64,000 nt of DNA from Paraspadella gotoi (Eukaryota > Animalia > Chaetognatha): NCBI GenBank assembly GCA_051294375.1, contig CM119264.1:24727842-24791841 (forward strand). Reading direction: 5' to 3'. The stretch's first letter is position 1; each line of letters opens with the position of its first letter. The position numbers and the translations under genes were made by a program. This document shows, piece after piece, positions 3,502 through 48,421 of the stretch. Below the pieces are notes generated by a model. It saw nothing but the letters and a program-made list of their open reading frames with translations. It had not been told where the DNA came from and did no database searches.

Positions 3502-3588
3502 GCTGGATAAAAGTTTAATTCACACAATATTATTATACGCCCTCGCTCACGGCTCTCTCTCTCTCTCTCTCCTCTCTCTCTTCTCTCT

Positions 3589-3642
<54 letters not shown>

Positions 3643-3983
3643 TCCCCTCCCACTCTTCGACTCCCTCTTTTCTTCTTACTATTCGAATCTCTCTCGCTCG
3701 CCTAACGAGCTACTTTTATAAAAACTCTTCTCACTCAGTCTCATTAAAACGCCGTTAAGTCCGCCCGTCGGAGACTCCGCCGCCGGAGCCTAATTTGCAT
3801 AACGAGGTTTTCGAGCGAAGCGGTGCCGCCTTTCGAAGATGTCCGCGCCCGGCGCGCCCACTGCCCGGCGCGCCCACTGCCAGGAGCCCCATAGCCGCCG
3901 CTGGGCCCAGCGCTGCCCGACCGAACGGCTTGCCCGCTCTGGCCGGACTGCCACCAGCGCCGCTAGTCGACGCCCGACGTTGA

Positions 3984-4021
<38 letters not shown>

Positions 4022-4089
4022 GAAAAAAAGGCAATGGAAAAAAAAGTACAAAAAGCCTGGAAAATAAAAAAGCGGACAAAAGGCCGCTG

Positions 4090-4126
<37 letters not shown>

Positions 4127-7065: not shown

Positions 7066-7115
<50 letters not shown>

Positions 7116-7118
7116 CTC

Positions 7119-7150
<32 letters not shown>

Positions 7151-7728
7151 TCACCCTCTCCCACTCTCTTCCGAACCTCCCCTTTTCTTCTTACCTATTC
7201 GAATCTCTCTCTGCTCGTCCTAACGAGCTACTTTTTATATAATAAAAAAACTCTTCCTCTCACCAGTTCTTCATCTTTTTTTTTAAAACGCCGTTTAAGT
7301 CCGCCACCAGTTCTCCGGGTTGACTCGCCACGCCCTCGTCCGCGTAGGGCACTCCGCTCCCCGCCGGAGCCCCTAATTTGATAAGAGGTTCTTCGAGCGA
7401 ACGGCGGGTATAGCCGCGCCTTTCGAAGATGTCCGCAGGCCGCCGGCCGCGCCCACTCTGACCCGTACGCGCGCCCACTGCAGGGCCCCATGCCGCCGCT
7501 GGCCAGCGCTGCCCTACCGAACGGCTTGCCCGGCTTCTTGGCCGACTGCCACCAGCCGCCCGCTAGTCGACAACCCGCGTTGAAGAGAAGAGAGAGAGAT
7601 GAAGAGAAGAGGAAAGGAGAGCGCAGAGACCAGAGGAGAAAGGAGAGGAAATAAAGGCAATTGTGGAAAAAAAAGTTACAAAAAGCCTTGGGGGGAAAAA
7701 TAAAAAAATGCGGACCAAAGGCCGCTGC

Positions 7729-7798
<70 letters not shown>

Positions 7799-10700
7799 AC
7801 TTTCATTTTTCATTTTTTTCACGCCTTCTCCTCAACGACGGCTTTTGTTAAATCCAGGCATGAACACTGAACGTTTCTAGCTTAACCTCTGCCTTTTCGA
7901 GCTCCACTACCGACCAACTTTTTGCTCAAACTACCGACCAAATTTTTTATATACTACCGCCGATCCTACTTAATTTTTGCTCCACTTCCTTTTTAACTTA
8001 ATAGCTTCAACCTGTGAAACCGCTCCAGGGCTATCAGTCTATAATCTATCTCCGCCATCGCTGTATCTCCATACAAGCTCCACTATACTCTCTTTAATGC
8101 CCCCCTTCCCTTTTGTACCCGAGGTGTTCCGCCACATAATCCCATTTACTCCAGCAGATCCTAAAGCCAAACTCCAGCTTTAATTCTTCCATTACCCACT
8201 CTGTCGAGTTTACCACCCAACAACCCCAAGCCCCGCCCTTTTCATATGACAACAAAAGCCACGAGTCAGTTCAGCCTCGATCCCTCCCTGATATCCCCCC
8301 TAATTATAATTTCTAGCAGGCCTTCTGACGGCAAGGGGGTTGGAAAACAAGAGTCCCCTACTTTAATTTCGTCTTCAACCTCACATCAGTGCATGCCGCT
8401 TAAAAATCAGACCAAACACTTATGGCCTATACTCGTTTCCACATAGAACACAAACTTTACAATCCTCTTTTCGCGGCTTTTCAGAACACAACTCAACATT
8501 CTTTCTAACAATTTCTAACTATTTATTAACCCTGCGCCACTTGACTAATTGAATCTTCTCCATCTCGGCACCACACTAATTAAAATTTCCCTCATCCTGA
8601 CATGTTAACTTTAATTTTTAATCCTCCCCTCTCCCCCTTCTCTTCCCCCCCTTTCCTCCCTCCTTTCCCCTCCACCATTTTCAGTCCCCTCTCCTCCAGA
8701 CTGAAATGCAAAAAAACAAAATGGTCTCGTCAAAAGGAGGCGCCGACACTTCGGAGGCGATCACCTCCTTCGTATTTTCTTCATTTCTCCTCGAACTCCC
8801 TCTCCTCTCTTTCTCTTCTCTCTTTCTCTTCTCTCTTTTTTTCTTTCTGTTTATTTTCTTTCAACTCTTTTTCTCGTCTCTTCTTTCTTTTGTCTTCTTC
8901 TTTGCTCTTCTTTTCTTACTCTCTTTCGCCATTTTCTAACTTTTCTTCTCGACTTTCTATCCCGTCTGCCTTATCCGGACACATCTTTTTCTCTTCATCC
9001 CGCCGCGCTGTGATTCTCAATCACGCTCTATTTCCCTTCTTCCTCCTTTTTTCTTCTCCCAAACTCCTTTCTCTTTCTTCTTTCCTCATTTTTCTCCACT
9101 TCCTCCCTTCCCTTCCTCTCGCCTACCCATCGTCCGTTCGTGTGTTCCTCTTATGTTTTTCCATTATTTTTTGAAGCCAAGGAATCTAGAAGCATTTTTT
9201 TTGGCACCTGTAAAAACGCGAGAGAATAAAATAAAGAGGAAAGTAAGATTGACAATAATAAAGATTTAGAAATGAAATAGAGAAAAAAGCATTAGAAAAG
9301 AGAATGAAAGAAATAAAGAAAAAAAAGAAAAAAAAAGAATGAATGAATGAAAGAAATAAATACGGAAAAAAAAAAAAAGATCATGAAGGAATAAAGAAAG
9401 AAGAAACATGCTGAGTCTGCATAAGAAAAGTGATAAGTCCTTCCAAAGCAAAAAAATTGCGGTTTTTCACGCGCGCTCGAGACAGCGAATCACTGATTGA
9501 CTCTTTTGCGAAATCCTAAGACCTTAAAAAAAAAAAATTTTCCTCGATTTGTAGTATCTATTCTACTATCACTTGGCCCCAAATAGAACAATTGTTTAAT
9601 ATTAAAAACACTATCAGTCCTATCGAATATGAGTTTCTCTCTCTCATATCCCTCTTCAACATCGGTACACCTCACAATGGAAAGAAAACAAAGAAAAAAC
9701 ACGTACGAAAGACCCGCCGAACTAATAAAAGGAAAAATAAATAGGCATTTAACTGGCGCCGTCAGCTTCTGTTTCTAGTGAAAACCATCCTGCTCTCTCA
9801 GATAGACCTGACATTTCCTCCGTCGGTTTGAATACTGGTTTTTTTTTCGATTTGGAAGAAAAAAAACAAACACAAACGAAATTAAAAACAGCGCAGAGTC
9901 AAATGCTGAAAACTGCTGCCGCCTGGCTTGCACCCCTCCGCCCGCCCCACCACAGCCTCCGCCGCAGCTGCCCGTCGTTATGCTACACATACTTGAGCTT
10001 TTATTTCGTAACAATATTTCCTAATTGCGTTGGGTTGATCAAAGCGCCGAGTTCTTTCGTCTCTCCGGACGCGAATGTTTCCCATTGAAAATTATGTTGG
10101 ATATGCTTCACCCCCCCCTCGATCCTTGTTGTTTGTTGTGTTTGTCGGCGGTCTCGTTGCCAAGTTTTTCTCACTGTATCCATGGAAACGATATGCAAGC
10201 CGACTGCCGACCAACCGAATCGGCATCCAACTTTTTCGATACTCATCTTTGGGGCTGAAGATTTTTATTTCGGAGTGTGGCGTTCCGAGGAGTCGATCAC
10301 GGGTAAGCGTCGGGGCAAGTCGTCTCTTTCTTCGTTGGGGTTCAGGCTGGATTCTGGAGATGAATGAAGCCAACAAGAGATTCGATGCTCGCTCGCTTGC
10401 TTGCTTGCTTGCTTGCTTGCTTTTCTTTTTTTTTTCTTTCTTTCTTCTCTTTCTTTCTTTCCTTTTTTCTTTCTTTCTTCTTTTCTTTCTTTCTTTCTTT
10501 CTTTCTTTGTTCTTTGTTTCTTTGTTTCTTTTCTTTCTCTTCATGTGTCCTGCCCTGCTTCAATCTACAATCTCTATATTTTCCGATGCTACAAAGTTTT
10601 TTTTTGTCTTTCTCCCCATTATTCTCTCTCTTTCCCAGTTTATTAAATCCTAGCTCCAGCTGCTCCATTCACTACTTATCTTTTTGTATTCATCTTCACA

Positions 10701-10990
10701 ACTGCTGATTCGTTGCAGACTTAATTCATCTCCACACTGCTCCTTTCCAATCCAGTTCATAAACTGCCTTGCATTCCTTGGCAATTGCTCCAATACTCTC
10801 CCGTATTCCCGATTGGGAGCAAAACTCACCCATCTCATTTTTTCCGACAATGTCGTTATAGGTTCTTCCCTTCCCCCAGTTAACACACCCAAACCCCAAG
10901 GGTTCCCAAAAAAATTATTGTACACTCTTCCAATTCTTCCTCCACTTTACGGTTCAAACTGATCTTAAAAACGAACTCCACACCACTCCA
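3502..10990. repeat. ~3.5-4 kb tandem duplication (3502-7000 vs 7001-10990), probably an assembly/gap-fill artefact; content unclassified
   Basis: Both copies begin (g)ctgg(cg)ataaaagtttaattc and end actgatcttaaaaacga..cacaccactc. They are colinear throughout and differ mostly by scattered 1-3 nt indels. Copy 2 has sequence where copy 1 has N-runs. Confidence 0.9.
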
Positions 10991-12095
10991 CTCGTCACAA
11001 CACTCACTCGTCACTCCCACTCACTCGTCACTATCACTCACTCGAATCCCACTCTCTCGACACACCACAGTTCTCGCACCCCAAACTGACATTTATATTA
11101 AGCCACTACAGTTTACATCGTTTATTTTGAAGGAGTGGCTTTTTTCATTTTCTCTCTCTCATCTTCTCTCTCTCTCTTTCTCTCTCTCTCTCTCCTCTCT
11201 TCTCTCTCTCTCTCTCCTCTTCTCTCTCTCTCTAAAATCCCTCCCTTAGTCGCCAGAGCTTTGCTCGAAGGCAAAACAAAAAAACTTTGACTTTTTTTAT
11301 TTTTCCTTTTTTTCGTCTAATAAAGAAGAAGAGAGAAGGGGCTTAAATGTGTTGGAGTGAAAGATCTGGCGAGGATTAAACGCAATACGAGCAGAGAGAA
11401 TGAGCAGAGAGAGAGACCGAGAGATGACGGAGGACGAGAGAGAGAGAGAGAGAGGAAGAGATGAGATAAAGACGAGTAACTGAAAGAGAGAGAGAGAGAA
11501 AGAGGTTTTGTGACGGGAGGATGCTCTGTGATCATTTTCGTTGTTATTGTTTTCTAGAACAGATTTCTCACTTGACTAGATTTATGTTACAATCCTTTAA
11601 ACGTTCAAAATTGAGTTCAGGAATAAGTTTCAGAAATTTTTTGGATACATTTTGTCTCTTGCGATAAATTTGAATTTTTAAAAAATGATGTGTTTTAAAA
11701 TAAAGACATCCAGCTCCTTATGGAGAAGATTGTGAATACTTTGTTTTTGAATAACTTAAACATTAATATTGTACGCGAAACAATATTTTCTTGCTGTTGC
11801 CATATGATACGCTACTTAATCGAGAATCATATACATACATTACAAACTAACTTAAAAAAAACCTAAGAACAGGCTCTTATCCAAACGACAGCATCTTTCA
11901 ATTGCATCTCAAACGACGACGTCCAAATGTCATCAAGTTCCTGAACGAAATGCAATGAATTCGTAGTCTAATGATGCAAACGCGGCATTGAATTTTAACC
12001 GAAAAAACTTTTCTTCCTTATGAATACTGCAATTTCTTTAGTATTCCGTCCGATTGTCGTCTGTTTGTAGTCGTCGTTCGTCCGTCGTCGTTGCG

Positions 12096-12221
12096 TCATT
12101 CGTCCTCCTGCTCTTCAATTGAAGTAGGAGTCTTTACGTCGTTCTCTGCAGATCGACGGAAGCACTTTTCAATGCGAGATTTTTCGTTCAAATCTGCCCT
12201 TACCAAACAATATAAACGCTC
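12096..12221 (-). CDS. possible terminal coding exon (ERLYCLVRADLNEKSRIEKCFRRSAENDVKTPTSIEEQEDE*), unassigned
   Basis: Preceded by ttttaaccag acceptor-like site, open for 41 codons to TGA, protein-like composition. No homology recognised. Confidence 0.2.
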   Translation of the reverse strand, partial: ERLYCLVRADLNEKSRIEKCFRRSAENDVKTPTSIEEQEDE

Positions 12222-13134
12222 CTGGTTAAAAATTCTGGTAAAATATCAGTAAAAACACTTTTGGATTCGATTCCTCGTTGCATCTGAAGGGCTCGCATTT
12301 TTTTTCTCTTGTCAATCCATCATCTCTTGCATATCAAACAAGCCAGAACAAATAGACTGTTTCTCGCATGCGAAAAATTTTTCCCATCTCTGTATTGTTT
12401 ATATAGACAATAAAAGGGATTTTTTTCCTTGAAAACGATATAAACGCTGACTTGAGGATAATGTTCCTGTTTTAACAAATGATGGCTAATTTGGGAATCC
12501 TTTGGCAAAGTGTCTGAAGGGGCTCTCCAAATTTTTTTCCTTTTTACAAATTTTTTTGTTATTTCTGATATGATACCGATCACTTGATAAAGTTGAATTA
12601 GTCTATTTTGGTTGAAATTTTTATTTAAAGTAAAAGTAAAAGAGGAGCCTAAACAATCGGAATTCTTAAGAGTTTTCAACCGGGAGTCAGATTCGGAAAA
12701 AAATCTTCTATGGCGAAAATTCTTCCAAAGAAGGGCGCTGGATTTCTAAAGATTTTGCGTTAATATTTTCTATATTTTTTATGGTTGGATTTTTTTCGAA
12801 ACTTAATATTTAACAATATTGCCATCATTCTACCTTGGCCGGCATCAAGAATATATTAAAAAAACCTNNNNNNNNNNNNNNNNNNNNNNNNNACCTCGGG
12901 CTTTGTTCGTCAGAGCTTAGTCCTAATTGAAGAGGAAGAAGAAAAAAGAAAGAAAGAAAGAAAAAGAAAGAAGCCAAAAGTGAATTTTTTTTTCCACCCG
13001 TGCGAAGTTTTATGTCTGTGAGAGGCTTTGACATCAGCCCCTCTATCTCTTTTTCTTTCTTCTCTCTTATTTTTTCATTTTTCTCTTTTTCTTTTCTTTT
13101 TCTTCTTTTTTTTTGACGAATACTAAATTAATTT

Positions 13135-13211
<77 letters not shown>

Positions 13212-13565
13212 GGGATATATATTTTTCCGGACGACTTACATTCAAAACTTTTTTTTTCCTTTAAGTTTTTTAAATTTTTTTTCCGAATTCCTTTCCTTAT
13301 TTAAACATTATCTTTTGAAGAAGAGGAGAATGGGAGTAGGAATCAAAATTTTTATAGATTTCGATTTCTATTAAAATCAAATGTAATATTTTACGAGATC
13401 GTTTCTCGACAACAGTTTTATATTACGCTTCTCAACTTCACTAAACTTCACTGCGTATCGCGTATCACGTATCGCGTATCACTAAACTTCACTGCGTATC
13501 GCTGCGTACCACGCTCAATTGAGACAACATTAAACCATAAATTAAGAAGATATTAAATGTGAGGA

Positions 13566-14240
13566 GTGAGAGAAGGAGACGAGAAGAGGTGGAAGGGAGG
13601 GGGAGAAAGGAGGGAGAGGGAGAGGAGGGAGAGAGGTAAGGGAAGGAGAAGAAGGGGAGTCGGAGGAGCGTGGGGAGCGGGGGGGGAGAGGGAGGGAGGA
13701 GGAGGGAGGTCGGGAGAGAACCGAGGAGAGATGCAGAGAGGGGAGAGGGGGGGGGGAGGCGAGGGGAGGGGGAGAGCAGTGAAAGGAGAGAAAGGAGAAA
13801 GAGAAGGGGAGGCAAGAGGAAGGGAAAGGGGGGGGGGAGGAGGGAGAGGAAGGAGCGGAACCGGGAGAGGAGGGGGAGAGATCGGTGGAGGCGACGCCCG
13901 GGAGCGCGGAGGGGGAGAGGAGGGACGCAAGGGGGCGAGAGGAAGGAGAAGAAGAGGGAGGGGGACGGAGAGGGGTAGCGGGGAAAAGCTGGAGTCTGGG
14001 AGGGAGGGGGATGGGGCGAGGGAGAGAGAGAAGGAGGGGGAGGGGCGAAGAGGAGGGATGGAAAGGGGGGAGGGAGGAAGGGAGGGAGACGGGGAGGGGG
14101 GGGAGAGAGGAGGGGTGAGAGGGCGAGGAGGGGAGGAGGGAGGGAATAGAAGAGAGAGAGAGGAGGGAGAGAGAGAAGAGAAGAAGAGAGAGAGAAGGAG
14201 ACGAGAGAAGATGAGAGAGGACGACGAGAGAGAGAAGAGA
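13566..14240. repeat. polypurine (G/A) low-complexity tract
   Basis: About 670 nt almost entirely G and A. Probably noisy read sequence. Explains the long GRE-rich and PSL-rich ORFs. Confidence 0.9.
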
Positions 14241-15384
14241 GGCCCTGGAGGGAAAGCACAATGGGGGAAAAGAGCCGAGCTTGAGAATCGGGGGAAAGTT
14301 GGGTTAGCGAAGAGAAATNNNNNNNNNNNNNNNNNNNNNNNNNGAGTAGCTCTGGCTTTCAGTGGAGAGATGAGGTGGCGTTGATTCGATTTAGTAGAAA
14401 TCGCAATTGAAGGATTGAGGCTAAAATGAGTTGGTTGTTGTTTTCTTTCGCAACGCGTTCTGAGATTTCGCTTTTTTTTAATTTCTTCTTTGTAATTTAC
14501 TGCAATTTTTTTTTTTCGCGACGGTTGCGCGAGGGGGGGCCTTCGGCGTTGGGAATACTAACCCGCGTCTTTTATCCTGAGAGTTTTATCTAAAGCGGTC
14601 GAGATTATGATGCAAAGCTACCTTTCTGCAAGGCAGCTGAGGGGTTATACAAGATCAAAACGGCGAAATGATGATTATTCATTATTATATTCATCTGTTT
14701 CCTTTTCGAGCGCCCCGTTAGTACGACGGCGCCCTCCTCCTCCAACTCCACCTTGCGTGATAGCCCTTTTATTCAAAATCAAGCAGGGCAGCGTCACCTT
14801 CGGAACGATACTGCAACCCTCCTTTCCACCAAGAAGGGTAAGCCCGAAACCGTCCCTTCAATGGTAATTAGCTTTCCCTTTAAAGTATACTGTACTTGAT
14901 ATTCATTTTTCACTGTTTACAATAACTCACCCATATCCCATAACTAGCCTCCATTTTCCCTTCTCACACTTTTCCGCATTTCTTTCTACTCTTTTTTCTC
15001 CCCCTACCGTCCCACCCCTCGTCATATACGACGTCCACCCCACCACCACAAGTCGGATTTCCCCCACACACGCACTATTCTCTAAACCGCCTCCCACCTT
15101 TTCTGACCTCCCGGGTTTGAATTGAGGATGCGATATTTCTGATTATTTTCAGATTTTACTCCCCAATTAAGAAAAGAGGTTGTTGGGGAAAGCGATGTTT
15201 TTGTATTCCTATTGAATTTATGCGGAGATAGAGAAGATGAGAGAGAGAGAGCAGAGGAGAGAAGAGGAGATGAGAGAGAGAGGAGAGACGAATGAGAGAG
15301 AGAGAGGGCCCTGGAGGGAAAGCACAATGGGGGAAAAGGCGCAGTAGAAATCGGGGGAAAGTTGGGTGTTTGCGAAGAGAATGG

Positions 15385-17787
15385 AATGAGAGATTAAAAG
15401 ACGGTTTATGATTTGAGACTCTAATTTTTTTAATGGAGAATAAAATGCGATGAGAAACAGAAACTTGTATGTGGAGAAAAATGGAGTGGCGCGAAAGCTT
15501 TGTTAAGAAGCGAAATAATAAGTTAAGGTCCCTCAAATAAAAGAATATTATCATTGCTGCTGTTTAATATGAAATGTTGATGTAAAATATGATAGAAGTG
15601 ATGATTAATAACGAAAAAAAGGAATATAAAATAAAAGAAAAGAGAAAGAAAGAAAAAAAAGAAAGAAGAAAAAAATAAGGGAAAGTGGAAAAAAAAAATA
15701 TGTTTAAATTTCAAATACGGGTCCAAACTCCGCCCTTTTTCTCATTCTCTATTCTTTCCCCTTTCGGATCCCTTTACTCCCCTTCTGGCCCCTTATTTTC
15801 TTTTTCCTCTATGGCTCTCCCTCTCAGTTCCATTCTAATTATTATTCTTCTCATTTCTGATAAATATAAAAAAAAAATGATGGTTAAGATTGAATACGGC
15901 TATGGTGGACAAGCTAATGCATATAGAGAGTAGTTCTGAATATGAATGACTCTATAACCTTAATCCATTTAGTTAGTGGATCCGTATTGGCTCATATATG
16001 TAATATTGTTTTAAAAGCTTAATGTAAGGTATTCTTTGTTCTGAATTTACCCAGACCGCTGTGTTCGATCGCGCCGGAATTCTTACAAGTTAAAAAAAAT
16101 GTTACAGATCTCAACAGACACGTTAGTAAACAATAAAAAGCTCAGTACAAATCAAATCCTAGTTGCTTTTTTTATCTCCCTGTCAGAAACCCACAAGAGA
16201 GAAGACGACCTTCGCTCTCCCTCAAGCTTCTCTAATCGTCCGCGCGAGCCCTGGCATCGATGAAGGCAATGATTGACCATCACGTGTCTTACAGCAGTGA
16301 GACGCTGCATACGCAGAATACGAGTTTCTCACCAACTGTATACATGTGTGAAAATTAGGGTATCTGAACTAACTAGGAATGGATTTAGATGTTAGGAATG
16401 GAGAGTAGTCTGATAGTCGTTATTGTATTGTAAGAATAGAAGAACGAAAGAGAGAAGATCTAAATACGACGAGCTCTCTCAGAGTTTTTTGGTGTCTAAT
16501 TGCTCTGATGGAAAGGCGCCAATTCATAAACTGCGCATCCGCGGAGTCACCCGAATTTGGTCCAATGTAATAAACGAGGAAGTTGTGTCTCTCTGTCGTA
16601 ACTTCTCTCTTTCTGACTCCCTCTGCTCTTGTGCTAATTCTCTTGGGCAGGACTTACTCATAATCTCTATTGAAGACAAACAAGGATTCAGTAGCGATAA
16701 TATAGATAATTGGTTTGAAGAGAAGAGCACTTTTTAGTAATCATGTTAGAAATATATATATTGATATATGAGGGATAAGTGGGTTATTTATTTGTATATC
16801 ATAATGACTAGTTGAAAATGTCGCTCATCTCTGCTCTTCTCTCTTATGGAGAAGGAAGTTTGGTGTTATTTGACGTAGAATAATTTTCATTGGTTGAGAG
16901 TATTAGATGAGGAGTATAAAATGACAAAACAATTAAAGTGTTCATCGAGAAGGGATTTGATAGATATTGAATAGATAATGTAAAAATGATAATTTGTAGC
17001 AGTATAGAGATATCTGATGTATAGAAAAATGCGACTCGGGTATTTTTGTTTTCATGGCACCGAGAAACAGGAAAAAACAATTTTCGGACGCATGACGTCA
17101 GCTTTTTGTTTTGACTTTTGTGAGGCAGAGAAAAGAAAAAGAGAGACAAGAAAGAGATCGACTTTACCCCTATTTGCTAAGAGAAGGTGAATTCGATACT
17201 CGAGAGAGTCGCGAAGAGAACATGAGAGAGAGAAATCGAGACTGTTTAGCTCTGAAGGTTTGGTATACATGGCGGTTTCCGATGGTTTTGGGCAGGAAAT
17301 GACTCTATATATTGATGTAAAAAGTTTCATAGTTTAAAAATCTCTCGCTGCGGTTCTTAATACGTATAGTGGGAAAGCTCTGATCTGTGTATTATATATC
17401 ATATTGCATATTTGCACATTGAATATCTCTGCAACAATTTAAGCAAAGATCATTAGAAGATATATGAGTTTTTGCATTATTGACTTTGATTATTAGATTG
17501 GAATCAAGTGGGTACAGTGTTAGATCTCTATCTCCTTCTCTCCTTTTGGAATGAGAGATAAAAGACGGTTATGATTTGAGACTCTAATTTTTTAATGGAG
17601 AATAAAATGGATGAGAAACAGAAACTGGATTTGGAGAAAAATGGAGTGCGCGAAAGTTTGTTAGAAGCGAAATAATAAGTTAAGGTCCCTCAAATAAAAG
17701 AATATTATCATTGCTGTTAATATGAAATGTTAGAAATAAAATAGATAGAAGTGAATGATTAAATAAACGAAAAAAAGGAAATAATGA

Positions 17788-17863
<76 letters not shown>

Positions 17864-19025
17864 AAAAAAGAAAGAAAGAAAAAAAGGAAGTGAGCGTCGG
17901 ATTTAAATTTCAAAACTGGTCCAAACTCCGCCCTTTTTTCTTGTCTCTATTCTTTCCCCCTTTTTCGGTTTTCCTTTTTTTTACTCTTTCCTTTCCTTTT
18001 TTTTCCCCTATTTTCTTTTTTCCTTTTCTCATTGCTCTCCTTCTTTCGGTCTCCTATTTAATTTTAGTTCTTTTTTTCATTTACGAGAAAGAAAAAAAAA
18101 TTGTATGGTTAAGATTGAAATTGCGGATCTTTTTGTTATCCCTTTGGCGATTGGGCACAAGCTTAATGCAAAGAGAGAGTTCTGAAATGTATAGACTGAA
18201 ACAAACCCATAGTTTAGTTGGACCGATTGGCAATATTGTAAATTGTTTTTAAAGCTAATGTTTACGATTGTTCAATTTACCAAGGTCTACGTTGGGAAAT
18301 TCTTACAGTCGTCGACAATGTACAATACAATACAATCAATCTTAACTTTTTTCCCTGTCCACCAAACTCTTCTCATACTAAGTCCCACCCTGACGAAGCT
18401 TACCTCTCTCCTTCCTCACCCTCTCCAGTCGGGAACTGGGTCTGGGTACTGGGTACTGGGTAGGGACGAGAGATCAAATCGAGTCTAGAATTTTTGTGTC
18501 CAATTAATTAGAGGCGAAACTCTAATCCACTCCGATCGAATTTCGGGATTTTATCGGATTTATTTTGACTCCGGATTTTCGCGCGATTCTTTGGGCAGAT
18601 CAAGTTATTTTTAGCGATTATAATTGGTGAGCACAATAGACACATTGTGATTTATTTGTTTGGTACAATTTATTTATTTGTCATATATATGTGTGGTCAT
18701 TGCTTGAAAGGGCGTTTGGTATTTTTACTAATATTTTTCATTGGTTGATATTATGAGGTTTAAATCAAAACAATTAAGTTCATCGAGTTTGATGATATTT
18801 TAGAATTAAATGATAATTTGTAAGATACCTTCTGTTATAGAAAATCGACTCGGGATTTTGTTTTCATAGCGAAAACAGGAAAAAAACATTTTCCGCATGA
18901 CGTCAGCTTTTTGTTTTCTTTCTGACAAAAAGAAAAACAAAGAAAGAGAATCGACTTCCATGCAAGAGAAGAATTCGATCGAGAGTCGAAGAGAGAATCA
19001 CTCTTTGTTTTTAAAAGTTCCATAT
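15385..19025. repeat. noisy tandem duplication (15385-17335 vs 17548-19025), probable gap-fill artefact
   Basis: Both copies start ggaatgagagat(t)aaaagacggtt(t)atgatttgagactc and share tagaaaa..cgactcggg..gacgtcagcttttg near their ends. Copy 1 carries many insertions. 14200-14318 also matches 15225-15383. Confidence 0.85.
17787..17865. repeat. (GAAA)n tetranucleotide microsatellite
   Basis: Direct run. Confidence 0.97.
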
Positions 19026-20884: not shown

Positions 20885-21260
20885 TTATCTTACTAGAGCC
20901 AAACTTTGTCAATGGGGTGGGTCAGTAGTTTGATTTGGGAACCTTTCCAAATGAAACTTCATACATTTCTGAGAAAACTTTCAATGGACCAAAATTTTCT
21001 AAAATGGCTAGAAGCATTAGTAATTAATTTTTTAATATTTATTTATAGATAGGAAATGTCAAAAATTTTTTTAAAAAGTTGTCTACACAAAGTATAATTC
21101 TTTTTTCAATATTTTGATGATAAGTGGGTCAAAATTGGGAAAAACCTTAAAAAATCATTATCATCATTATCATCCGATGATTTTAGCAGTTTTTATTAAT
21201 TTTTAGTATCCAAAAAAAATTTTGACATTATATAGCAATATAATAATATTAATTAGCGAA
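20885..21260. mobile_element. fragment of an AT-rich non-autonomous DNA transposon (MITE-like)
   Basis: tgataagtgggtcaaaatt...tcattatcatccgat matches, in reverse complement, 26975-27050. The taagtgggtcaaaa motif also occurs in the fold-back at 35.9 kb. Confidence 0.5.
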
Positions 21261-23180: not shown

Positions 23181-24762
23181 AAAATTGGAGGGTAGAATGA
23201 ATGTAATAAAAGTGAGGATAAAGGTTGAAGCGGAATTGAGAGAGGCTAAAGTTCAAAAAATGAATTAAAGCATAAACGAATGAATGAACGAAGAAGTGAA
23301 AAATGTTTGAGTGAACGAATGATTGAAGACTTGATTAAAAAGGTGAATGAATGAATGACGAAATAAACAGAGCACGAAACTTACTACGAATCAACTTCTT
23401 TTCCACAAAATCCTGGCATAGTTGCCCTTTTTTTTTCACCATCAACGCCTTTCAATTTGATGTCAGTGAATTCACCCATTTTGACCCCGAAAAGACTTTA
23501 TTTCCTCATCCTTCACTCTCTCCTTTTTTTTCCCTCTGCTAATCGACAAACGCATTATTCGCCAGTAAAAAACAAAACCTTTCCCTCTTTCCAAAACTCA
23601 AAAACGCCGTCCAGATCCGACTTTCATACATTTGTTTTTCTGTATTCAAGAAAACATTTTAAAAAAACAAAAAATAAAACTATGTAGTACAAAAGCTTAC
23701 GAGGATGGAAGAAAAAAACATAAAAGCAAAAAGAGGCAAGCTACTTGATCTGTCAGAAGTAGCTATCGGTCCATTCCTTGCGATCGTAATTATTATTTAA
23801 AACCAAAACCTTCGCTTTTCTTCAAATATACATAAGCACTTACTTTTTTTGAAACGTTGTGAGACTCACGCTTAATCTTTTACGTTTTTTTCTTTGACCA
23901 TTTTAAATAATCTATTTGTGTTGATTTATTTAGTTATTTTTTTAAAGCTTTCTCATGTCTATTCTTAAATCTTTCGTCCTTGCTAAAATTCTTTTCTCCT
24001 CTTTTCTTTTATTTTCTTTTTCCTCCCCTCACTTCCTCTAGAGACGTTAAAACGACCGAGGTGTGGCAACCAATCAAGGGATTAGCTGCCTATATTTCGC
24101 CGCTAAAAATAGTCTCTCTCTCTCGCTCTCTCTCTCGACCTTCCCTCACCCCATTGCTTTATTTCCTCCGCCTTGCCCCGAGCCTGTGGGTCAGAGTCCA
24201 CGACCCCGAGAAACTTCGCGGATTTTCTTTTTGGTTCCTCAGATCCACACTTGTGGCTTCCAACGGGTTGTGGAGGGACTGAGTAAAAGATGTCGTCGGG
24301 ATGTGGACAGAACCGAGACTCATTTTTAATTTATTTCCCAAAAAAATTTTAAAGGTTAAAACTTAAAAATTATTTGTTTATCGACCATTAAAAAAAGTTC
24401 TTTGAACTTTAAGAACTAAATGATTTCCCCATTTTCTGGGTTTCAACGGGAAAACGAAGACGACGACGAAAACAAAGACGACGACGGCGACGAAAACAAA
24501 GACGACGACGACGACGACGACGACGAAGACTTTCTTGACGTTAACGGCCTTCGTGAAGGATTAAGCGGAAAATGAACTTTGTGAACGGCAGAGATTCGGA
24601 AGCCACATGTGAACGCAATCCGTGGGAATATGGTGAGAGACAAGACGATAGTATCTTTTTGTGTGTAGACTTTCTTCCTGTCAATATTTGAAATTCTATT
24701 AGTTTGAGTATTTGAGCTTTTGTTGATATTATGGTGGACTAAAATCCACCAACCGTTCATCA

Positions 24763-24835
24763 GCGGCCATTGGTTCCGGAGGCAAGTCATTCGCCTCCCA
24801 ACCCAAAGGTCCCGGGTTCTAGCCCGGTGGTCGCC
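24763..24835 (+). pseudogene. tRNA-like cloverleaf (SINE head, not a functional tRNA)
   Basis: Acceptor stem GCGGCCA/TGGTCGC (7 bp), weak D stem GGTT/AGTC, T stem CCGGG/CCCGG with GGTTC B-box. The anticodon stem is broken (TTCGC/CCCAA around CTCCCAA) and the T loop has only 6 nt. Confidence 0.8.
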
Positions 24836-24836
24836 T

Positions 24837-24912
24837 AGCAGTTAAGAGGGACGGGGCGCTTAACCCGCCTGTAACTCAGTGTTACAGCCTGATCCGAAGC
24901 TCAGGGACTGCT
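24837..24912 (+). ncRNA. candidate circularly permuted (P5-type) twister-like self-cleaving ribozyme
   Basis: P5 AGCAGTT/GACTGCT; P2 GGG/CCC; T1 pseudoknot CGG(24852-54)/CCG(24894-96); TAA at 24861-63; T2 GC/GC; P3 CTGTAAC/GTTACAG; P4 CCTGA/TCAGG closing loop TCCGAAGC. P1 is minimal and P2/L1 are atypical. Confidence 0.65.
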
Positions 24913-26409
24913 TATATTGAACGGTTCTATCACTAACACATAATAATAATTACTGTCTCTTCAGTCTTCAATATTTTCTTTGTTTCTTTGAGAAAGAACG
25001 TATTAAAATGCTGGACTGTGGAGTGTGGAGTGTGGAAGCTTCCTCGCTGATTCTCTTCTCTCCAAAATGAAGAATCGAAGGTGACAATCCAAGTTGTGAG
25101 GGAAACGTCAAAGGGCCGAGAAAGTCTGAGGTAATGCGGACTTGAGACTGAAAGAAATTTCACTAACGAGATTATTAAAAGTGAAAATTTGAGGATAATA
25201 TTAACCTATTAATTATAATTTATACCGAGTGTTTTAGAATAATAAGTTTGGTTTAAGATGCTAGACGCCCGATTTTCCCCCTTTGTGACGGCAGAGTCAG
25301 GAGTCTTTATAACTTTATAATATATTGGGTGCATCAGTTAATTTCATGACTTGGTTCAAAAATTATAAAATGATTCTTAGCTAATAATGGTTATATATAG
25401 GTTCCTAAAGCTCTATCCAGGCAAGCCTGGTTAAAAAAGTCCTTTGGATGGATCGACTTTTTCGTTTGACCTGCCACTCTTCAGGTAGGTTTCTTTTATT
25501 TTATAATTAAAACCGATAAAAAATGGCGTAGAATGCGTCAAATGTTTAAAGTGAATACATTTTCGGAATCGCCAGGAGCTCAGCTTTTTGAATCAAGTTG
25601 ATTTGAATGACCCTGCCCAGGGCGTACACTGAGTATCTCAGCGATTCCCCGTTTCCTCGCCTAACCAACTCTCTATCCTATCTAACATCCAATCAGTGAG
25701 AGACAATGATTCTTATTATTAATAATCTTTATTACTATCCAATCCAATTAGAACCACAATTAATTATAGGGCGGTATATAGAAAGAGGAACCAGGAATTA
25801 ATATAATTAGTATAATTATTATAGTTTTCCTAGTTTATACACATTATATAAATATGTTACAGTACCTTTTATTAAGTAGTAACCACAATAGTACTTGGGT
25901 ATTATACCACCAATTATTATTGTATAATCTTTACATATGTTACTGTTTACCGAAAGAGAGAGAGACAGAGAGAAAGAGAGAAAAAGAGAGGGACATCCTT
26001 CGTCGCATTCTAACAAGATTTAAGCAGCGTAGGCGTCGTGCTTCTTACGGAATAGTTGTAGAATAGTTTGGAAAAGATTGACAGTTAAAACTGTCTGGCG
26101 CTAGGAGGAGGCACAATATAATTCAATAAGATTCTAATTCTAAATTAGAAACATGGTCATCATATTAAGGTGACAAATATAGTTGATGTTCTTGATATAC
26201 GCAATGAGTCTATTAAAACATTGAATAATTAAATAAAATATTTAAAAAAAAGCTAAATGAAGCGATGTAAAGTCTAAGACGATGTAATGACGGCAGAAAA
26301 AGCGCGTGAAATTTAGTTTTTATTCAATGGAAAATGATCTACTATGATGGAAAAAAAATTGTCACGGTTTCTTAACTTAAATTTAATCTTAATTTATTCT
26401 TAATCTCAT

Positions 26410-27470
26410 GTTACAAGTGTTATAAGTTTTAAACCACCAGAACTTGTCAAAAATTTAAGAAAAAATAATTTATTTATTAAATGAAACATTTTTATATTAA
26501 TTATAAAAATTTTATAATTATTATTTAATCATTAATATAAAAACCATAAAATATTAAAAAATTATAATATTTAAATTTTTTTGAATTACTTTTTAAACAT
26601 ATTAAACATATCCAAGAATTTTAGATATTTATTAGATTTATGATAAAAAATAATTTTTAACAAATAAAATTTTTTTTAAATTTTATTATTATTACACAAT
26701 AGGGTGGAATGATAAAAAGATTGAACATTTTTTACTGCCTATGGACATATAATTAATAAATTTTTAAATACTTTAAAAAATTTTTAAATATAACAGTATA
26801 ATAAATTAAATTATGTAGTAATATCCTAAAAAAAATCATATAATGTAAAAAATTTTTTTTTATATTTAAAATTTTTTAATTGATTCTGATAGAGCTAAAA
26901 AAATTAAACAAAATTATATTACAACTTTTTAAAATTTTAATATTTTATTATTAAAAATTAACAAAAACTACTATATTATCGGATGATGATGATAATAATT
27001 TTTTAAATTTTTCTTAATTTTAACCCACCTATCATTAAAATATTAAAAAATATTAAATTTAACAAAATTTTTAATATGTTTTTTTAAACTTTTTATAAAG
27101 AATCTAAATCTTTATTAAAAGTTTTAAAATTTTTTTTTTTAAATTTACTATTTTATAAAAATATTATTACAAATATATTAGATTTTATTATTCTATTCCC
27201 GAAACTATATGAATAAAATATTTTTTATAATAATTAATCATACTATTTTACATCTAAATATTTTTACTTAATTACCCAAATATTTTTTTAGTTTTAACTG
27301 CTCTACTCTACTGCACAAAGCAATAAAATATAATCTTATGATTTTTATAAATTTTTTAATTTTTTATAAAATTGATACAACCAATATAAAACTTATCTAT
27401 TTATTTAATAAATAAACTATTTTATCCCTGACTTTGAACAGGCTTTAGTAGTTTAAAACCTTTACCATAC
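26410..27470. mobile_element. ~1.05-kb very AT-rich MITE/fold-back element with long imperfect terminal inverted repeats
   Basis: agttttaaaccaccagaacttgtcaaaa...ttatttattaaat (26425-26485) is the approximate reverse complement of atttaataaataa...ctttgaacaggctttagtagtttaaaacc (27400-27460). Confidence 0.6.
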
Positions 27471-35078: not shown

Positions 35079-36286
35079 GGCGTAGTAAAATTTCTAAATT
35101 TTACTTTAATTAAAATTCTAAAAGTGAGAAACGAACAACATTATACTAATAAATTGTTAAATAGTTTATAAATATTTAGTTAATTTTCGAAATTAATATT
35201 CGGTTTTATATGGAATACCAATAACGTTACTAGCTTAAATTCTTAAACTCGTCTCTATTCTTTGATTTCATTGGTTATTATTTGGTTCTTAATTCTGATT
35301 GGACGAGACCTTTCTGATCCAATTATGTGTATTATTCTCAAAAGTCGAAAGTCGTTTTTAATTGGTCTATTTAAATTTAAAGAAGTATAAAAGGGCAAGT
35401 AGATGTTAAACTTTTAGGAGATTGCCCAGGAAACATTAGGTAACATGATGAAATATTTGTAACTCTTTGAAATGAATTCTAATCATTGAAATTATTATTT
35501 TGTACAGCTTTGAGCTCTATTTGAGCCTCTCTCTATTTGAGCTCTCTCTCTATCTGTAGCTCTCTCTCTCTGGCTCTCTTTATTTCTCAATAGCTCACTC
35601 TTGTTGCTCTGCTCTGATTATTTTATAAATCTCGTGATTTGGATTGATTCTTATTTTTGAGAGTGAAATGGCTTCGCCCAGTGAAATCTACAAGGTACAA
35701 ATTAGGTTAGAGCTAAGTGCTCAAACAATGTTTTTTAAACAATCTCCCACATAAACATTTATGTAATAAAAAAATTTATAATAAATTTTACAATTTACGC
35801 AGTAGGCCATATTTATACTAGTACTAAACCAATAAATGTTAAAATTTCAAAACAGTTTTTTTCTAAGATTTTTTTTCAGATTCAGATTCGTCATAAAAAG
35901 TTGATGGAAAGAAATATAACTCTTTTTGAAAAATTCCTTCATTAAGTGGGTCAAAAATTAGAAAAAGCTATATTTTAAGCTGAAAATTAACTTTTTATAT
36001 TTTAATATAGTTTTTTTTAATTTGTAACCCACTTAATAAAAAAATTTTTAAAAATGATTTATATTTTCTTTTATCAACTTTTGACGAGGAATTCAAATCT
36101 GCAATCAAAATTAAGAAAAGCCTATTTTGAATTTTTCGATTTATAAGGATAGTTCTATATATAAATATAGCCTACTGCGAAAATTAAAAAAACATAAAAT
36201 CAATTTTTTTTACAAATTAATGTTCACTGATGATATGTTGTTCATAATTGACTTTTAGAATTTTCTTATGTAACTTTCACTACGCC
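35079..36286. mobile_element. non-autonomous TTAA-flanked DNA transposon (Kolobok-like termini) with internal ~600-bp fold-back
   Basis: TTAA|GGCGTAGTAAAA ... TTTCACTACGCC|TTAA (11/12 TIR match). 35680-36286 is an imperfect palindrome centred near 35990 (e.g. cgcagtaggccatatttata / tataaatatagcctactgcg, attaagtgggt / acccacttaat). Confidence 0.75.
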
Positions 36287-37200: not shown

Positions 37201-38547
37201 ATAGGAACTGATTGACTTTCTATGGAAAAAGGATTCGAGATCGTTATGAACCTCACCAACAGAGAGGAGGAATGAAGTGTGAGAGAACGAATTTTCTCGC
37301 TCAGTAAACAGAGATGTGACTTTTACTCAACACATGCAGACGCCGCTGACTTTCGATGTCTTTGACAAATACAACGAATACATTTTCGTTGGCTTTATGT
37401 TGTTGGGCGACAAGAACGAAAAATAAGATGACGAGTTTTATTCGCGCCATTATTTCTTTCCTTTTTAGACATTTTTATCAATTTTTAGTTTTCGTTTTTC
37501 CTCTTTTTTTAATTTTTAAATTTTGCTTTCTCCTTTTTCCTTCTCAATTTTCCTCTTTTCTCTATTCTCCGGTAAAATTTTCCCTTTCTTTTTCTCTATT
37601 ACTCTTTCTCCTTTTTGATTTTCCTTTTTCTATTCAAATTTTCCTTTCTCCTTTCCTTTTTCTCTATTTCCCTTTCTCCTTCTGGATTTTACGCTTCGAC
37701 TCCTTCGCCCGAACGAAAGTCGCCGCCTAAAGTCGACGCTTTGAAAACTTTGGGGTCTGCAAAAGAGCGGGAGAGACAAAGGGTAAAGGGGGCGGGGAAG
37801 AGGGCGTAAGGGCGGCGACAAAGGGGGCTAAAGATGGCGGCAGGGGTGGCCAAAGGGGGCGCGGAATCCTTCATAACAAATTTCCCTTTTGTTCGCCTCC
37901 GTTCCACTATGATGACAACCTTCCTCACATTTTTTTTCAAAGAGCAAAAAAAAAAAAAATCCTTTATATCACCAAGAAAGGGAGAAAAATTCGCTCAACC
38001 TCCCCCCCTCGAGGTTTTTTTATGTACGCGCCCATTCTTTCACATCACAAAACCCTTTTCCTCAATTTTGCGGCATAATTCACCCGAAAAAGGGAAAAAA
38101 AGGGGGGGGAGTGCTCAACTTGACTCCCTCGCGTCTCCGCGTCACTTGACTCCCCACCTTCGATCTCCCTATTTTTCTATTCTCCATCTTCGACCATCAT
38201 TCCTTCATCCCTTTTCTTTTTCCTCCTTTTCTCTCTATTTCTTTCCTTTCCTCTTTCCCTCACTCCAGGCCTTATTACTCTCCCTTCCCTACGAATGGGA
38301 GTAAAAATCCGGTGTTAAAATCGCGTCGGACTAATTTAAAAACAATTTTTTTGCCTTCTTCCACCTGGCTCCAGGTAAAACTTTTTTAAACTCTCACTTT
38401 TTTTTTCGCTTATAGACCCTAAATCTTTTTTAGGTCATTATTCACTCGGGAGAGCGAATTGGAGTTTTCACGTAAAATATCGCGTTCGTATTGTCGTCGG
38501 GCATTGCCTAAGTTCACCCCGCCTATAAGCATGCCACTTTCAGTTGT

Positions 38548-38750
38548 GACCCGTTAGCTCATTGAGTAAAGCAGTCAGCTCATGACCACTTGGTACCGGG
38601 TTCAACCGTGAGGACGGCCGAAAGCCGCCTTGACGGCGTTGAAAACCCTCAAACCTGGTTCCAAGCCCAGGACCCGTTCCATAACTGCTGAGGGGGCACT
38701 GAATTTACGGATAGTAGTCTTCAGTCCACTTAGCGCCTTATCCACAGTAT
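38548..38750 (+). mobile_element. tRNA(Met-CAT-like)-headed SINE-like element, family B, containing a twister-like ribozyme
   Basis: A-box TAGCTCATTGAG, anticodon-loop-like CTCATGA, B-box GGGTTCAACC, then a twister-like fold and tail gtagtcttcagtcc. TATAA lies about 24 nt upstream. Single copy in the window. Confidence 0.6.
38627..38697 (+). ncRNA. candidate P1-type twister-like ribozyme (degenerate)
   Basis: P1 GCC/GGC; TTGA; P2 CGGC/GCTG; T2 GT/GC; P3 TGA/TCA; P4 CCTGG/CCAGG closing TTCCAAGC (the GGTYCCAAGCCC signature); T1 TCC/GGG. Confidence 0.55.
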
Positions 38751-41094: not shown

Positions 41095-41570
41095 TAATGT
41101 CAAAATCAAATAGTTTTTTTTAATTCTGAGAACTGATTCAGATTCCTCCTTAAAATTAATAAAGAAAGTATAAATCTTTTCAAAAAATTATGTCATTAAG
41201 TAAGTTAAATTACAAAGAACATTTTTAAGCTGGAAATTCAAAATCGGCGTCTTAAATATAGTTTTTTCAACATTTTTGACTAACTTAATGAAATAATTTT
41301 TAAAAAAGAATTGTACTTCTTATAATAACTTTTTGCAGGAATCCAAATCCGATCTTAAAATTTAAAAATTTGCATTTGGAAAATTTTAGACTATTATATA
41401 CTTATTACTATATATAAATATAGCTACTGGTGCCCCACTTATGTATAAAATTAAAAAATAAATTTACCAAAAATATTTTTAAGATGTGTTTTGATGCTCA
41501 ATCGTTTCTTATACCGCTACAATTCTTAAAATTTTGCTAAACATTTTATCATTTTCACATCACTCTAATC
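41095..41570. mobile_element. second, more decayed copy of the fold-back MITE seen at 35680-36286
   Basis: Shares gattcagattc...attaagt...tttaagctg.aaatt...acttaat...ggaat.caaatc...ctatatataaatatagc.actg with the 35.8-36.2 kb palindrome. Confidence 0.7.
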
Positions 41571-46806: not shown

Positions 46807-47022
46807 TTGGTAGACTAAAATCCACCAAATGTTCATCAGCCGTCATTGGTGCAGTTGGCAAGCCAGTGGTCGCCTAACATTTCTCGGGACAGGGCGCTTA
46901 ACCCGCCTGTTACATGGTGTTACAGCCTGATCCGAAGCTCAGGGACTGCTTATACAGTTCTGTCACTAACACATAACATTTATTACTGTCTCTTCAGTCG
47001 CCGAGTTTCATATTTTCTTTTG
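46807..47022 (+). mobile_element. family A copy 2 (tRNA head internally deleted, ribozyme fold partly decayed)
   Basis: Same upstream hairpin, A-box TGGTGCAGTTGG, deletion of anticodon and T arms, then gggacagggcgcttaacccgcctg...gttacagcctgatccgaagctcagggactgct and the same tail. Confidence 0.85.
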
Positions 47023-47990: not shown

Positions 47991-48421
47991 GTTGTGTGAA
48001 TATTGAATCTATCAATCGATCATTCGATCAATCTACTATTTATTTATTTTCCCAGACCGCCCCATTTTTTCTTAAATTCTGAAATAAGGAAATTTGTTTT
48101 GTTAAAGATTAGCTTAGAAGTTAAGGTGAGGCATTAAGGTGAGGCATTAAGGTGAGGCATTAAGGTTAGGTATTAAGTTAGTGATTAAGGCGAAGGACTT
48201 AGTTTATGATTAGGGTTAGGGACTAATATTTAGGGTTAGAGGTCATGGTTAGGGTTAGGTTAGGTTAGGGTTGGGTTAGGTTAGGTTAGGTTAGGTTAGG
48301 TTAGGTTAGGTTAGGTTAGGTTAGGTTAGGTTAGGGTTTAAGATTAAGTTAAGGTTAGTGATTAGGGTTAGCAATTAGGGTTAAGGAATAATTTATATTG
48401 TGGCGGTATATTCACACCGCC
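47990..48421 (+). mobile_element. HINE/DINE-1-like non-autonomous element with internal (TTAGG)n array, in intron 3
   Basis: 14-bp inverted repeats GGTTGTGTGAATAT (47990-48003) / ATATTCACACCGCC (48408-48421), 12/14 match. 3' hairpin GGCGGT-N8-ACCGCC, internal ACCGCC at 48056, central tandem repeats. Confidence 0.5.
48121..48385 (+). repeat. interstitial telomere-like array: 13-mer TTAAGGTGAGGCA x3, pure (TTAGG)12 at 48276-48335, flanked by TTAGGG/TTAAGG variants
   Basis: Direct reading of the sequence. Confidence 0.95.

Follow-up and report, generated by a model that had tools for sequence, protein, structure and literature searches.

A tRNA-like Pol III promoter and a predicted type-P1 twister in a possible Helenus-type solo LTR of Paraspadella gotoi

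Helenus TRIMs carry inside their LTRs a tRNA-like part with TRGCY and GGTTC boxes, and they are described with 4-bp target-site duplications (TSDs) in animals, solo LTRs, LTRs of up to 323 bp and a Gypsy partner (Kojima 2024, PMC10886601); the portion of that paper at hand describes no ribozyme in them. Plant LTR retrozymes do have a ribozyme inside an LTR of ~300 bp, together with 4-bp TSDs and solo LTRs, but theirs is a type III hammerhead, and the sections consulted describe no tRNA-derived promoter (Cervera et al. 2016, PMC4918200). LTR retrozymes are summarized as mainly plant and hammerhead-based in the available part of a recent preprint (bioRxiv 10.64898/2026.07.22.740005), and PMC7761336 refers to insect elements that have type III hammerheads, from work not yet published. 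Twisters are abundant in animal genomes, where, according to the consulted part of PMC8501958, the sole function proposed so far concerns the 5' end of a single LINE family. The Perere-3 twister T-variants treated there (Liu et al. 2021) are likewise twisters in an animal retroelement, but this is a non-LTR RTE that is cut at its 5' end, whereas the cut predicted below is internal. Schistosoma SINE-like repeats combine a Pol III promoter with a ribozyme, but as tandem non-LTR units with a hammerhead (reviewed in PMC6765202, in part at hand), and Cassandra has a Pol III promoter within its LTR, but a 5S promoter and, in the part of PMC7215508 at hand, no mention of a ribozyme. In the literature covered, which is incomplete and consists mostly of titles and listings, we found no twister in an LTR and no ribozyme in Helenus; the consulted parts of PMC10085705, PMC5680766, PMC13570524, PMC7215508 and bioRxiv 10.1101/2022.07.19.500677 hold no case of the former.

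Here we describe an element in a window of 64,000 nt of Paraspadella gotoi DNA (the whole stretch that was analysed), which is likely the solo LTR of a Helenus-type TRIM, with a predicted type-P1 twister behind its tRNA-like Pol III promoter. That it is an LTR we consider very probable, and that it is non-autonomous and of Helenus type, probable; to the explanation as a whole, with a twister that would cut in the mobile form, we give an even chance. Its parts are as follows:

38488..38491, plus strand: left TSD, GTAT (from the sequence; the adjoining family end at 38492 was taken independently from loose contig ends)
38492..38746, plus strand: whole element, a 255-nt LTR-like unit, TGT...ACA, without A tail (from depth and loose contig ends)
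38492..38547, plus strand: 56 nt 5' of the tRNA-like head, presumably U3-like, within the family coverage
38548..38605, plus strand: degenerate tRNA-like head (sequence and family letters)
38555-38566, plus strand: A box (sequence)
38579-38585, plus strand: CTCATGA loop without a paired stem (sequence)
from 38599, plus strand: B box, cut short by a deletion in the window copy (sequence and family)
38617..38697, plus strand: predicted type-P1 twister (Rfam alignment and pair lists)
38698..38746, plus strand: 3' part of the LTR, presumably U5-like (sequence comparison)
38747..38750, plus strand: right TSD, GTAT (sequence)

The family was traced with contigs of four public runs with the same species label, aligned to the element at 80% likeness. 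Matches occur in all four runs (2819, 3308, 32 and 318 contigs), which confirms that the element is multi-copy. One run (X8) shows near-universal G>A conversion and was used solely as a purine/pyrimidine pattern. In run X1 the summed depth is 1e4-1e6 within the element and 18-20 in the flanks; the ratio of peak to flank depth of ~8,000-19,000 is one of summed contig depths and not a copy number, and read as an order of magnitude only it makes thousands of copies likely. Depth is lowest at 38615-29 and 38690-704. Loose contig ends gather at 38492 (61, 68 and 18 contigs in X1, X2 and X9) and at 38746 (61, 71 and 13 contigs), and beyond both positions the contig flanks are AT-rich and agree poorly with each other. 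The extent of 38548-38750 first proposed was therefore too small. A third loose-end site at 38605 marks a segment of ~17-20 nt that is present in the family and missing from the window copy, which is ~7-10% diverged from the family majority. Searches for the element elsewhere gave no further copy within the 64,000-nt window (BLASTN, nhmmer), and pattern scans of viral, metagenome and prokaryote collections returned no member of the family: viral contigs gave 0 matches in four scans, the metagenomes gave two, both bacterial P5 twisters from outside the family, and the single prokaryote-genome match was rejected as chance, since the 5' half of P4 is missing from it.

Among 59,392 window intervals of the same length, 38492-38746 is the only one that combines TG..CA termini with identical 4-nt flanks; the element ends had come from the loose contig ends and not from this interval test. 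The element has no tail and no internal T4 run, and 56 nt precede its tRNA-like head. It had been framed as a tRNA-headed element, but the TG..CA ends and the 4-bp TSD, which were overlooked there, make it an LTR-like unit, and this alters the mechanism to be considered. In fact, all three features of Helenus LTRs that can be tested here were found, namely an LTR with TG..CA termini, the 4-bp TSD of the animal families (GTAT on both sides, in the one copy examined) and, inside the LTR, a tRNA-like part with a TRGCY A box and a GGTTC B box. The assignment to Helenus, known here from a single LTR-like unit, appears likely on these sequence features.

Some smaller observations concern the same unit. 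To the left of 38492 the loose-end consensus has G at -8 and -4 in all three runs that list it; this G-rich tendency is a weak hint of a PPT and may alternatively reflect a target preference or selection against matching letters. A TATAA lies at 38524-38528, 5' of the A box, and we assign no role to it; the TCAGTT at 38540 is presumably initiator-like, with a spacing to the TATAA that we take to be non-canonical for a Pol II TATA-Inr pair. The ratio of X9 to X1 depth is flat along the element (0.047-0.067), where X9 is RNA by guess only. X9 is enriched for 38538C (74%, compared with 33-38% in the DNA runs), for 38545C (44%, compared with 15-19%) and for 38638A, which may reflect a transcribed subfamily or a strain difference.

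The initial annotation was right about the A and B boxes of the head. Across the family the A box is TGGC (38556G at 98-99% of depth), and the B box is complete and lies in a hairpin; part of it is lost behind 38605 in the window copy, whose own promoter, truncated in this way, probably drives no transcription. The "Met-CAT" parentage suggested for the head finds no support, as the anticodon stem is unpaired and no tRNA was called at the head by ARAGORN (default and relaxed thresholds) or by Rfam. The head is best regarded as a promoter relic of uncertain parentage.

Behind the head, the Rfam model of the type-P1 twister (RF03160) aligns to 38616-38698 with 22.4 bits, so that the search proposed in the initial annotation did yield an alignment, but one below the gathering score of 67.2. 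Its E-value is 0.025 in a search of 501 nt and 3.2 for the whole window and 4227 families, and at gathering scores no Rfam family matches in the window. The parts of the predicted fold, all on the plus strand and in the Rfam register where a pairing is named, are:

38617-19/38695-97, plus strand: P1
38620-22, plus strand: L1, G-A-A
38623-25/38687-89, plus strand: P2, 3 bp plus a mismatch in the window copy
38627-28 with 38665-66, plus strand: T2, GC at 38627-28
38629..38653, plus strand: P3 hairpin, 4+2 bp in the window copy and 8 contiguous pairs in the family majority
38654..38671, plus strand: P4 and L4, with some of the highest coverage in the family and no variant among the rows listed
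38660-62 with 38692-94, plus strand: T1
38690..38694, plus strand: GAGGG, with the predicted general-base G (38690) and the T1 partner (Rfam alignment)
38615..38627, plus strand: competing hairpin, which takes in L1, the 5' strands of P1 and P2 and a single base of T2

The window copy shares with RF03160 the order of the blocks, P3, P4, L4, both pseudoknot pairings T1 and T2, the GAGGG and the NAA (GAA) at the predicted cut, 38620|38621, and the 3' strand of its P2 abuts the catalytic G. It differs from RF03160 in its score, in the short P2 with a mismatch and in a P5-like insert, and the family majority differs in a non-canonical P2/L1. A general-base role for the twister G that corresponds to G38690 is described in PMC6154101, and G*AA twister substrates are cleaved in vitro (PMC8501958, both as far as consulted). 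Among the rows listed for the family, no variant affects L4, the GC of T2 or GAGGG, and with the majority letters 38633G, 38634G and 38653G (73-100% in X1, X2 and X9) P3 consists of 8 contiguous pairs, 38629-36 with 38646-53. The 20-mer at 38654-38673 is identical in both metagenome matches, and both of its carriers exceed the gathering score of Twister-P5 (51 and 42.1 bits compared with 37.6). These two, L001 404-471 and L002 404-462, both on the minus strand, are bacterial or phage-like type-P5 twisters in short intergenic gaps; the P2 of L002 likewise has 3 bp. A twister descriptor, designed after both elements had been seen, finds two loci in the window, the present element and the first copy of family A described below; on 100 local shuffles it finds 0.09 loci on average, with at least one in 9 of the 100. 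The MFE z-scores of the twister core are near 0. Taken together, we are confident that the core is twister-derived.

The letters quoted in the initial annotation are present where it placed them, and much of the fold drawn from them holds, namely P4/L4, GAGGG, both pseudoknot pairings and the type P1; the register of the helices does not. In the earlier register (P1 38627-29, L1 TGA, P2 38634-37, T2 GT, P3 38640-42) the family letters, at 73-100% in three runs, break one part after the other: 38633G removes the TGA of L1, 38634G breaks P2 and 38640G breaks P3. This register also pairs the catalytic G38690 away inside P2. Folding alone cannot choose between the registers, because their nested energies are similar (-11.4 kcal/mol for the earlier and -11.9 kcal/mol for the Rfam register), and we rejected the earlier one for the family letters and the loss of an unpaired catalytic G. 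The supposed TGA for TAA and GT for GC were thus misread, as the Rfam register gives G-A-A at 38620-22 and GC at 38627-28, and the reasons given for calling the copy dead fall with them; likewise, the cut and 5' end expected at ~38632 move to 38620|38621. The competing hairpin over the P1 5' strand is, on the other hand, real: 38615-18/38624-27 has a probability of 0.84-0.99 in a nested-only ensemble that ignores both pseudoknots, and in such nested-only folding the probability of P2 is near 0.

Whether the ribozyme would cut depends on letters around P1 and P2. In the family majority, position 38621 is T (88-100%), while 38683 (58-66%) and 38684 (76-85%) are both G; a single additional A precedes GAGGG in the main loose-end consensus. 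With T at 38621 the canonical drawing of the window copy loses its +1 A, and twister variants with 0 or 1 A showed no cleavage (PMC8501958, in the part consulted). The family majority can alternatively be drawn with TAA at 38621-23 and P2 at 38624-26 with 38683-85, which leaves 4-5 extra nt between P2 and the catalytic G; an NAA followed by a P2 that abuts this G does not result from the unphased majority letters in either case. The depth at 38621 is only 0.9% of the peak, the letters are unphased and the bulk-family sequence is poorly resolved there. The minority letters of the window copy (A at 38621, 38683 and 38684) are all nearer to a canonical twister than the majority, and they may point to a competent subfamily that is older or separate. 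The competing hairpin lowers the expected activity but leaves room for it, since the hammerheads of plant retrozymes are likewise predicted in a blocked conformation (PMC4918200, in part at hand). A further blocking helix of 7 bp (38613-19/38683-89) was dropped, as it rested on splicing loose ends of different runs. Since no canonical P2 can be drawn from the majority letters of the family, we judge the prospects that the predicted ribozyme cuts in the mobile form to be roughly balanced.

The closest parallel is found in two elements of Synergus wasps, Helenus-2_SyJa and Helenus-2_SyUm, which are listed with an LTR of 277 bp, a 4-bp TSD, a PBS and a PPT (PMC10886601 DataS1, in part). Their TGT..ACA LTRs resemble the present unit in length (255 nt plus the ~17-20 nt lost here), and common to both are degenerate tRNA-like A/B boxes ~60 nt into the LTR, the 4-bp TSD and the occurrence of solo LTRs. 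By eye, and without scoring, the Synergus LTRs in that file have a type III hammerhead directly behind the tRNA-like part, with a CUGAUGA + GAAA core, a GUC triplet, three stems and a 12-nt loop-loop complementarity or pseudoknot. A ribozyme-like motif thus sits in the same slot, but it is a hammerhead there and a twister here. The main text of the Helenus paper, in the sections at hand, makes no mention of a twister, of self-cleavage or of this hammerhead; the accessible supplement holds no twister L4 string, although line breaks or variants could hide one, and no member of the present family by three 9-mers (PMC10886601). Two short stretches of the 3' part match between the two by eye in the available file: 38729-38743 is identical to Helenus-2_SyUm-LTR at 13 of 15 positions, and the loose-end consensus behind 38689 agrees with the 3' part of the Synergus LTR at 13 of 17, for a rough joint chance of 0.005-0.08 over ~234 families. 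This suggests a shared LTR ancestry with the Synergus Helenus-2 elements, in which the ribozyme would have been swapped.

The window contains a second kind of tRNA-headed twister-like element, family A:

24732..24966, plus strand: family A copy 1 (A1; sequence, ARAGORN and pair lists)
24763-24835, plus strand: tRNA-Gly(CCC)-like gene of A1 (ARAGORN -ps95)
~24838-24910, plus strand: P5-type twister-like fold of A1 (pair lists)
46808..46999, plus strand: family A copy 2 (A2), with an internal deletion in the tRNA part (sequence comparison)

The twister-like fold of A1 has a 7-bp P3, its loop CCG pairs with a CGG in T1, and both this pairing and the loop-closing A-U pair are compensatory relative to the consensus; A2 has a change that breaks T1. 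No Rfam twister matches A1 at E<=10, and no TG..CA with a TSD of 4-6 bp was found at the family A ends. In agreement with the initial annotation, family A shows no significant alignment to the element at 38492-38746 (scores as good came from 23 and 13 of 300 shuffles), but A1 and A2 both end in a 9-nt motif that recurs at 38718-26. The further claim that a tRNA head and a twister were assembled at least twice stands in so far as two topologies lie behind tRNA heads in one window, but not as to independent origin: with a 9-nt 3' motif in common, the two could equally well belong to a single LTR lineage in which the ribozyme was swapped. Family A also has a terminal hairpin (24732-24751) and a 9-bp inverted pair, between whose arms lie both its tRNA-Gly-like gene and its P5-type twister. 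The 5' start of the family is similar to 38720-38729 when the latter is reverse-complemented. A minus-strand hammerhead around the shared 3' motif was rejected by eye, as it has no GAAA and no stem II.

By analogy, we infer that the element may work like a plant LTR retrozyme, and the following route is modelled on the cycle described for these (PMC4918200, PMC7761336, the relevant parts). In a full element with two LTRs, transcription by Pol III would begin at the tRNA-like head of the 5' LTR and, as there is no T4 run in the LTR to stop it, continue beyond. A single cut by the twister in each LTR would yield a unit-length RNA with a 5'-OH and a 2',3'-cyclic phosphate, which would then be circularised; the circular RNA would be primed at the PBS, reverse-transcribed and integrated by a Gypsy-type partner or integrase. 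Solo LTRs would arise by recombination or from short cDNAs. Were the element a SINE, its template would be split by the ribozyme, which lies 70 nt behind the promoter, and the 56 upstream nt would be left uncopied; the LTR route solves this problem. A missing terminator does not in itself call for a ribozyme, because the fish Helenus LTRs examined likewise have no T run, and inspection by eye reveals no ribozyme in them (PMC10886601). Circular RNA has been demonstrated for the plant elements (PMC4918200, as far as consulted) and is a prediction for the present element, a single solo LTR in which one twister is predicted; LTR retrozymes as so far defined, with a ribozyme per LTR, carry a hammerhead. 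Among the 148 of 225 filtered window ORFs that were scanned, no protein family scored above the curated Pfam cut-offs, and no reverse transcriptase or integrase was seen.

The strongest competitor accepts the Helenus-type LTR and takes its twister for a captured relic that no longer cuts, in an element that follows the ordinary TRIM route, with the stems kept for other reasons or through recent amplification. The non-canonical P2/L1 that results from the majority letters at 38621 and 38683-84 and from the extra A before GAGGG would fit such a relic, as would the dominance of the competing hairpin in nested folding and the fact that most Helenus LTRs examined have no ribozyme by eye, in a supplement without a twister L4 string (PMC10886601, in part). 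A relic would, however, hardly be expected to keep L4, GC and GAGGG free of variants among the rows listed while P3 gains pairs in the family; moreover, family A retains twister pairings by compensatory changes, and the Synergus LTRs have, by eye, an intact-looking hammerhead in the same slot. We therefore hold a relic to be possible but rather unlikely. Chance resemblance within an ordinary repeat could account for an Rfam score of 22.4 against a gathering score of 67.2, a window-wide E-value of 3.2 and core MFE z-scores near 0, but not readily for an exact 20-nt identity to two bona fide twisters, for all blocks in order where shuffles average 0.09 descriptor loci, or for a second twister-like element that follows a different tRNA head elsewhere in the window; we consider it extremely improbable.

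The remaining alternatives concern the carrier and not the ribozyme. A tRNA-derived SINE or non-LTR retrozyme moved by a LINE or Penelope element would have models in the Schistosoma Pol III/hammerhead repeats, where promoter and ribozyme are known to occur together (PMC6765202), and in the 5' twisters of Perere-3 and other RTE ends (PMC8501958, PMC7761336; all in part at hand). A SINE should start at its tRNA head, end in a tail and have a TSD of variable length; here, however, 56 nt of the element precede the head, no tail follows, and TG..CA termini stand between the two copies of an exact 4-bp duplication. The predicted cut is not 5'-terminal but lies ~130 nt inside the element, the 15 joints listed (of 68) include no head-to-tail one, and no contig fit in two places, all of which makes this carrier quite improbable. 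TGT..ACA ends and 4-bp TSDs are also features that we take to be typical of Ginger-like DNA transposons, and the termini of the element do show a loose inverted similarity over ~20 nt, so that a non-autonomous DNA transposon might carry the tRNA-twister cassette by chance. Yet the termini are far from a proper TIR and the layout fits Helenus LTRs, and we regard such a transposon as very improbable.

With the Helenus-type LTR as the preferred reading, a more general proposal can be put forward tentatively, and with less confidence than the reading itself. Animals may have LTR retrozymes in the form of Helenus-type TRIMs with a ribozyme slot behind the tRNA-derived Pol III promoter, which would be filled by twisters (type P1 here, P5 in family A) or by the type III hammerhead of Synergus; the ribozyme would set both RNA ends and yield circular Pol III RNAs, and its class would be swapped within one LTR lineage. 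If this is true, a twister in a Pol III-driven LTR of thousands of copies would give twisters a second, testable role, and LTR retrozymes would extend from plants to animals. It would also provide a route by which some Pol III TRIMs form their template for reverse transcription, and an example of interchangeable ribozyme classes within one element lineage.

The surrounding window is rich in repeats, among them numerous AG microsatellites, and has a eukaryote-like character. It includes a degenerate tandem segmental duplication of ~3.5 kb (3509-6999 and 7011-10988, 78-88% identity) and AT-rich dispersed repeats with palindromic ends and a MITE-like look (35879-36177, 41135-41429, 21102-21208 and 26949-27050). 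An interstitial (GGTTA)n array of 17 units at 48247-48335, beside TTAAGG-type repeats, has what we take to be a resemblance to the arthropod telomere repeat.
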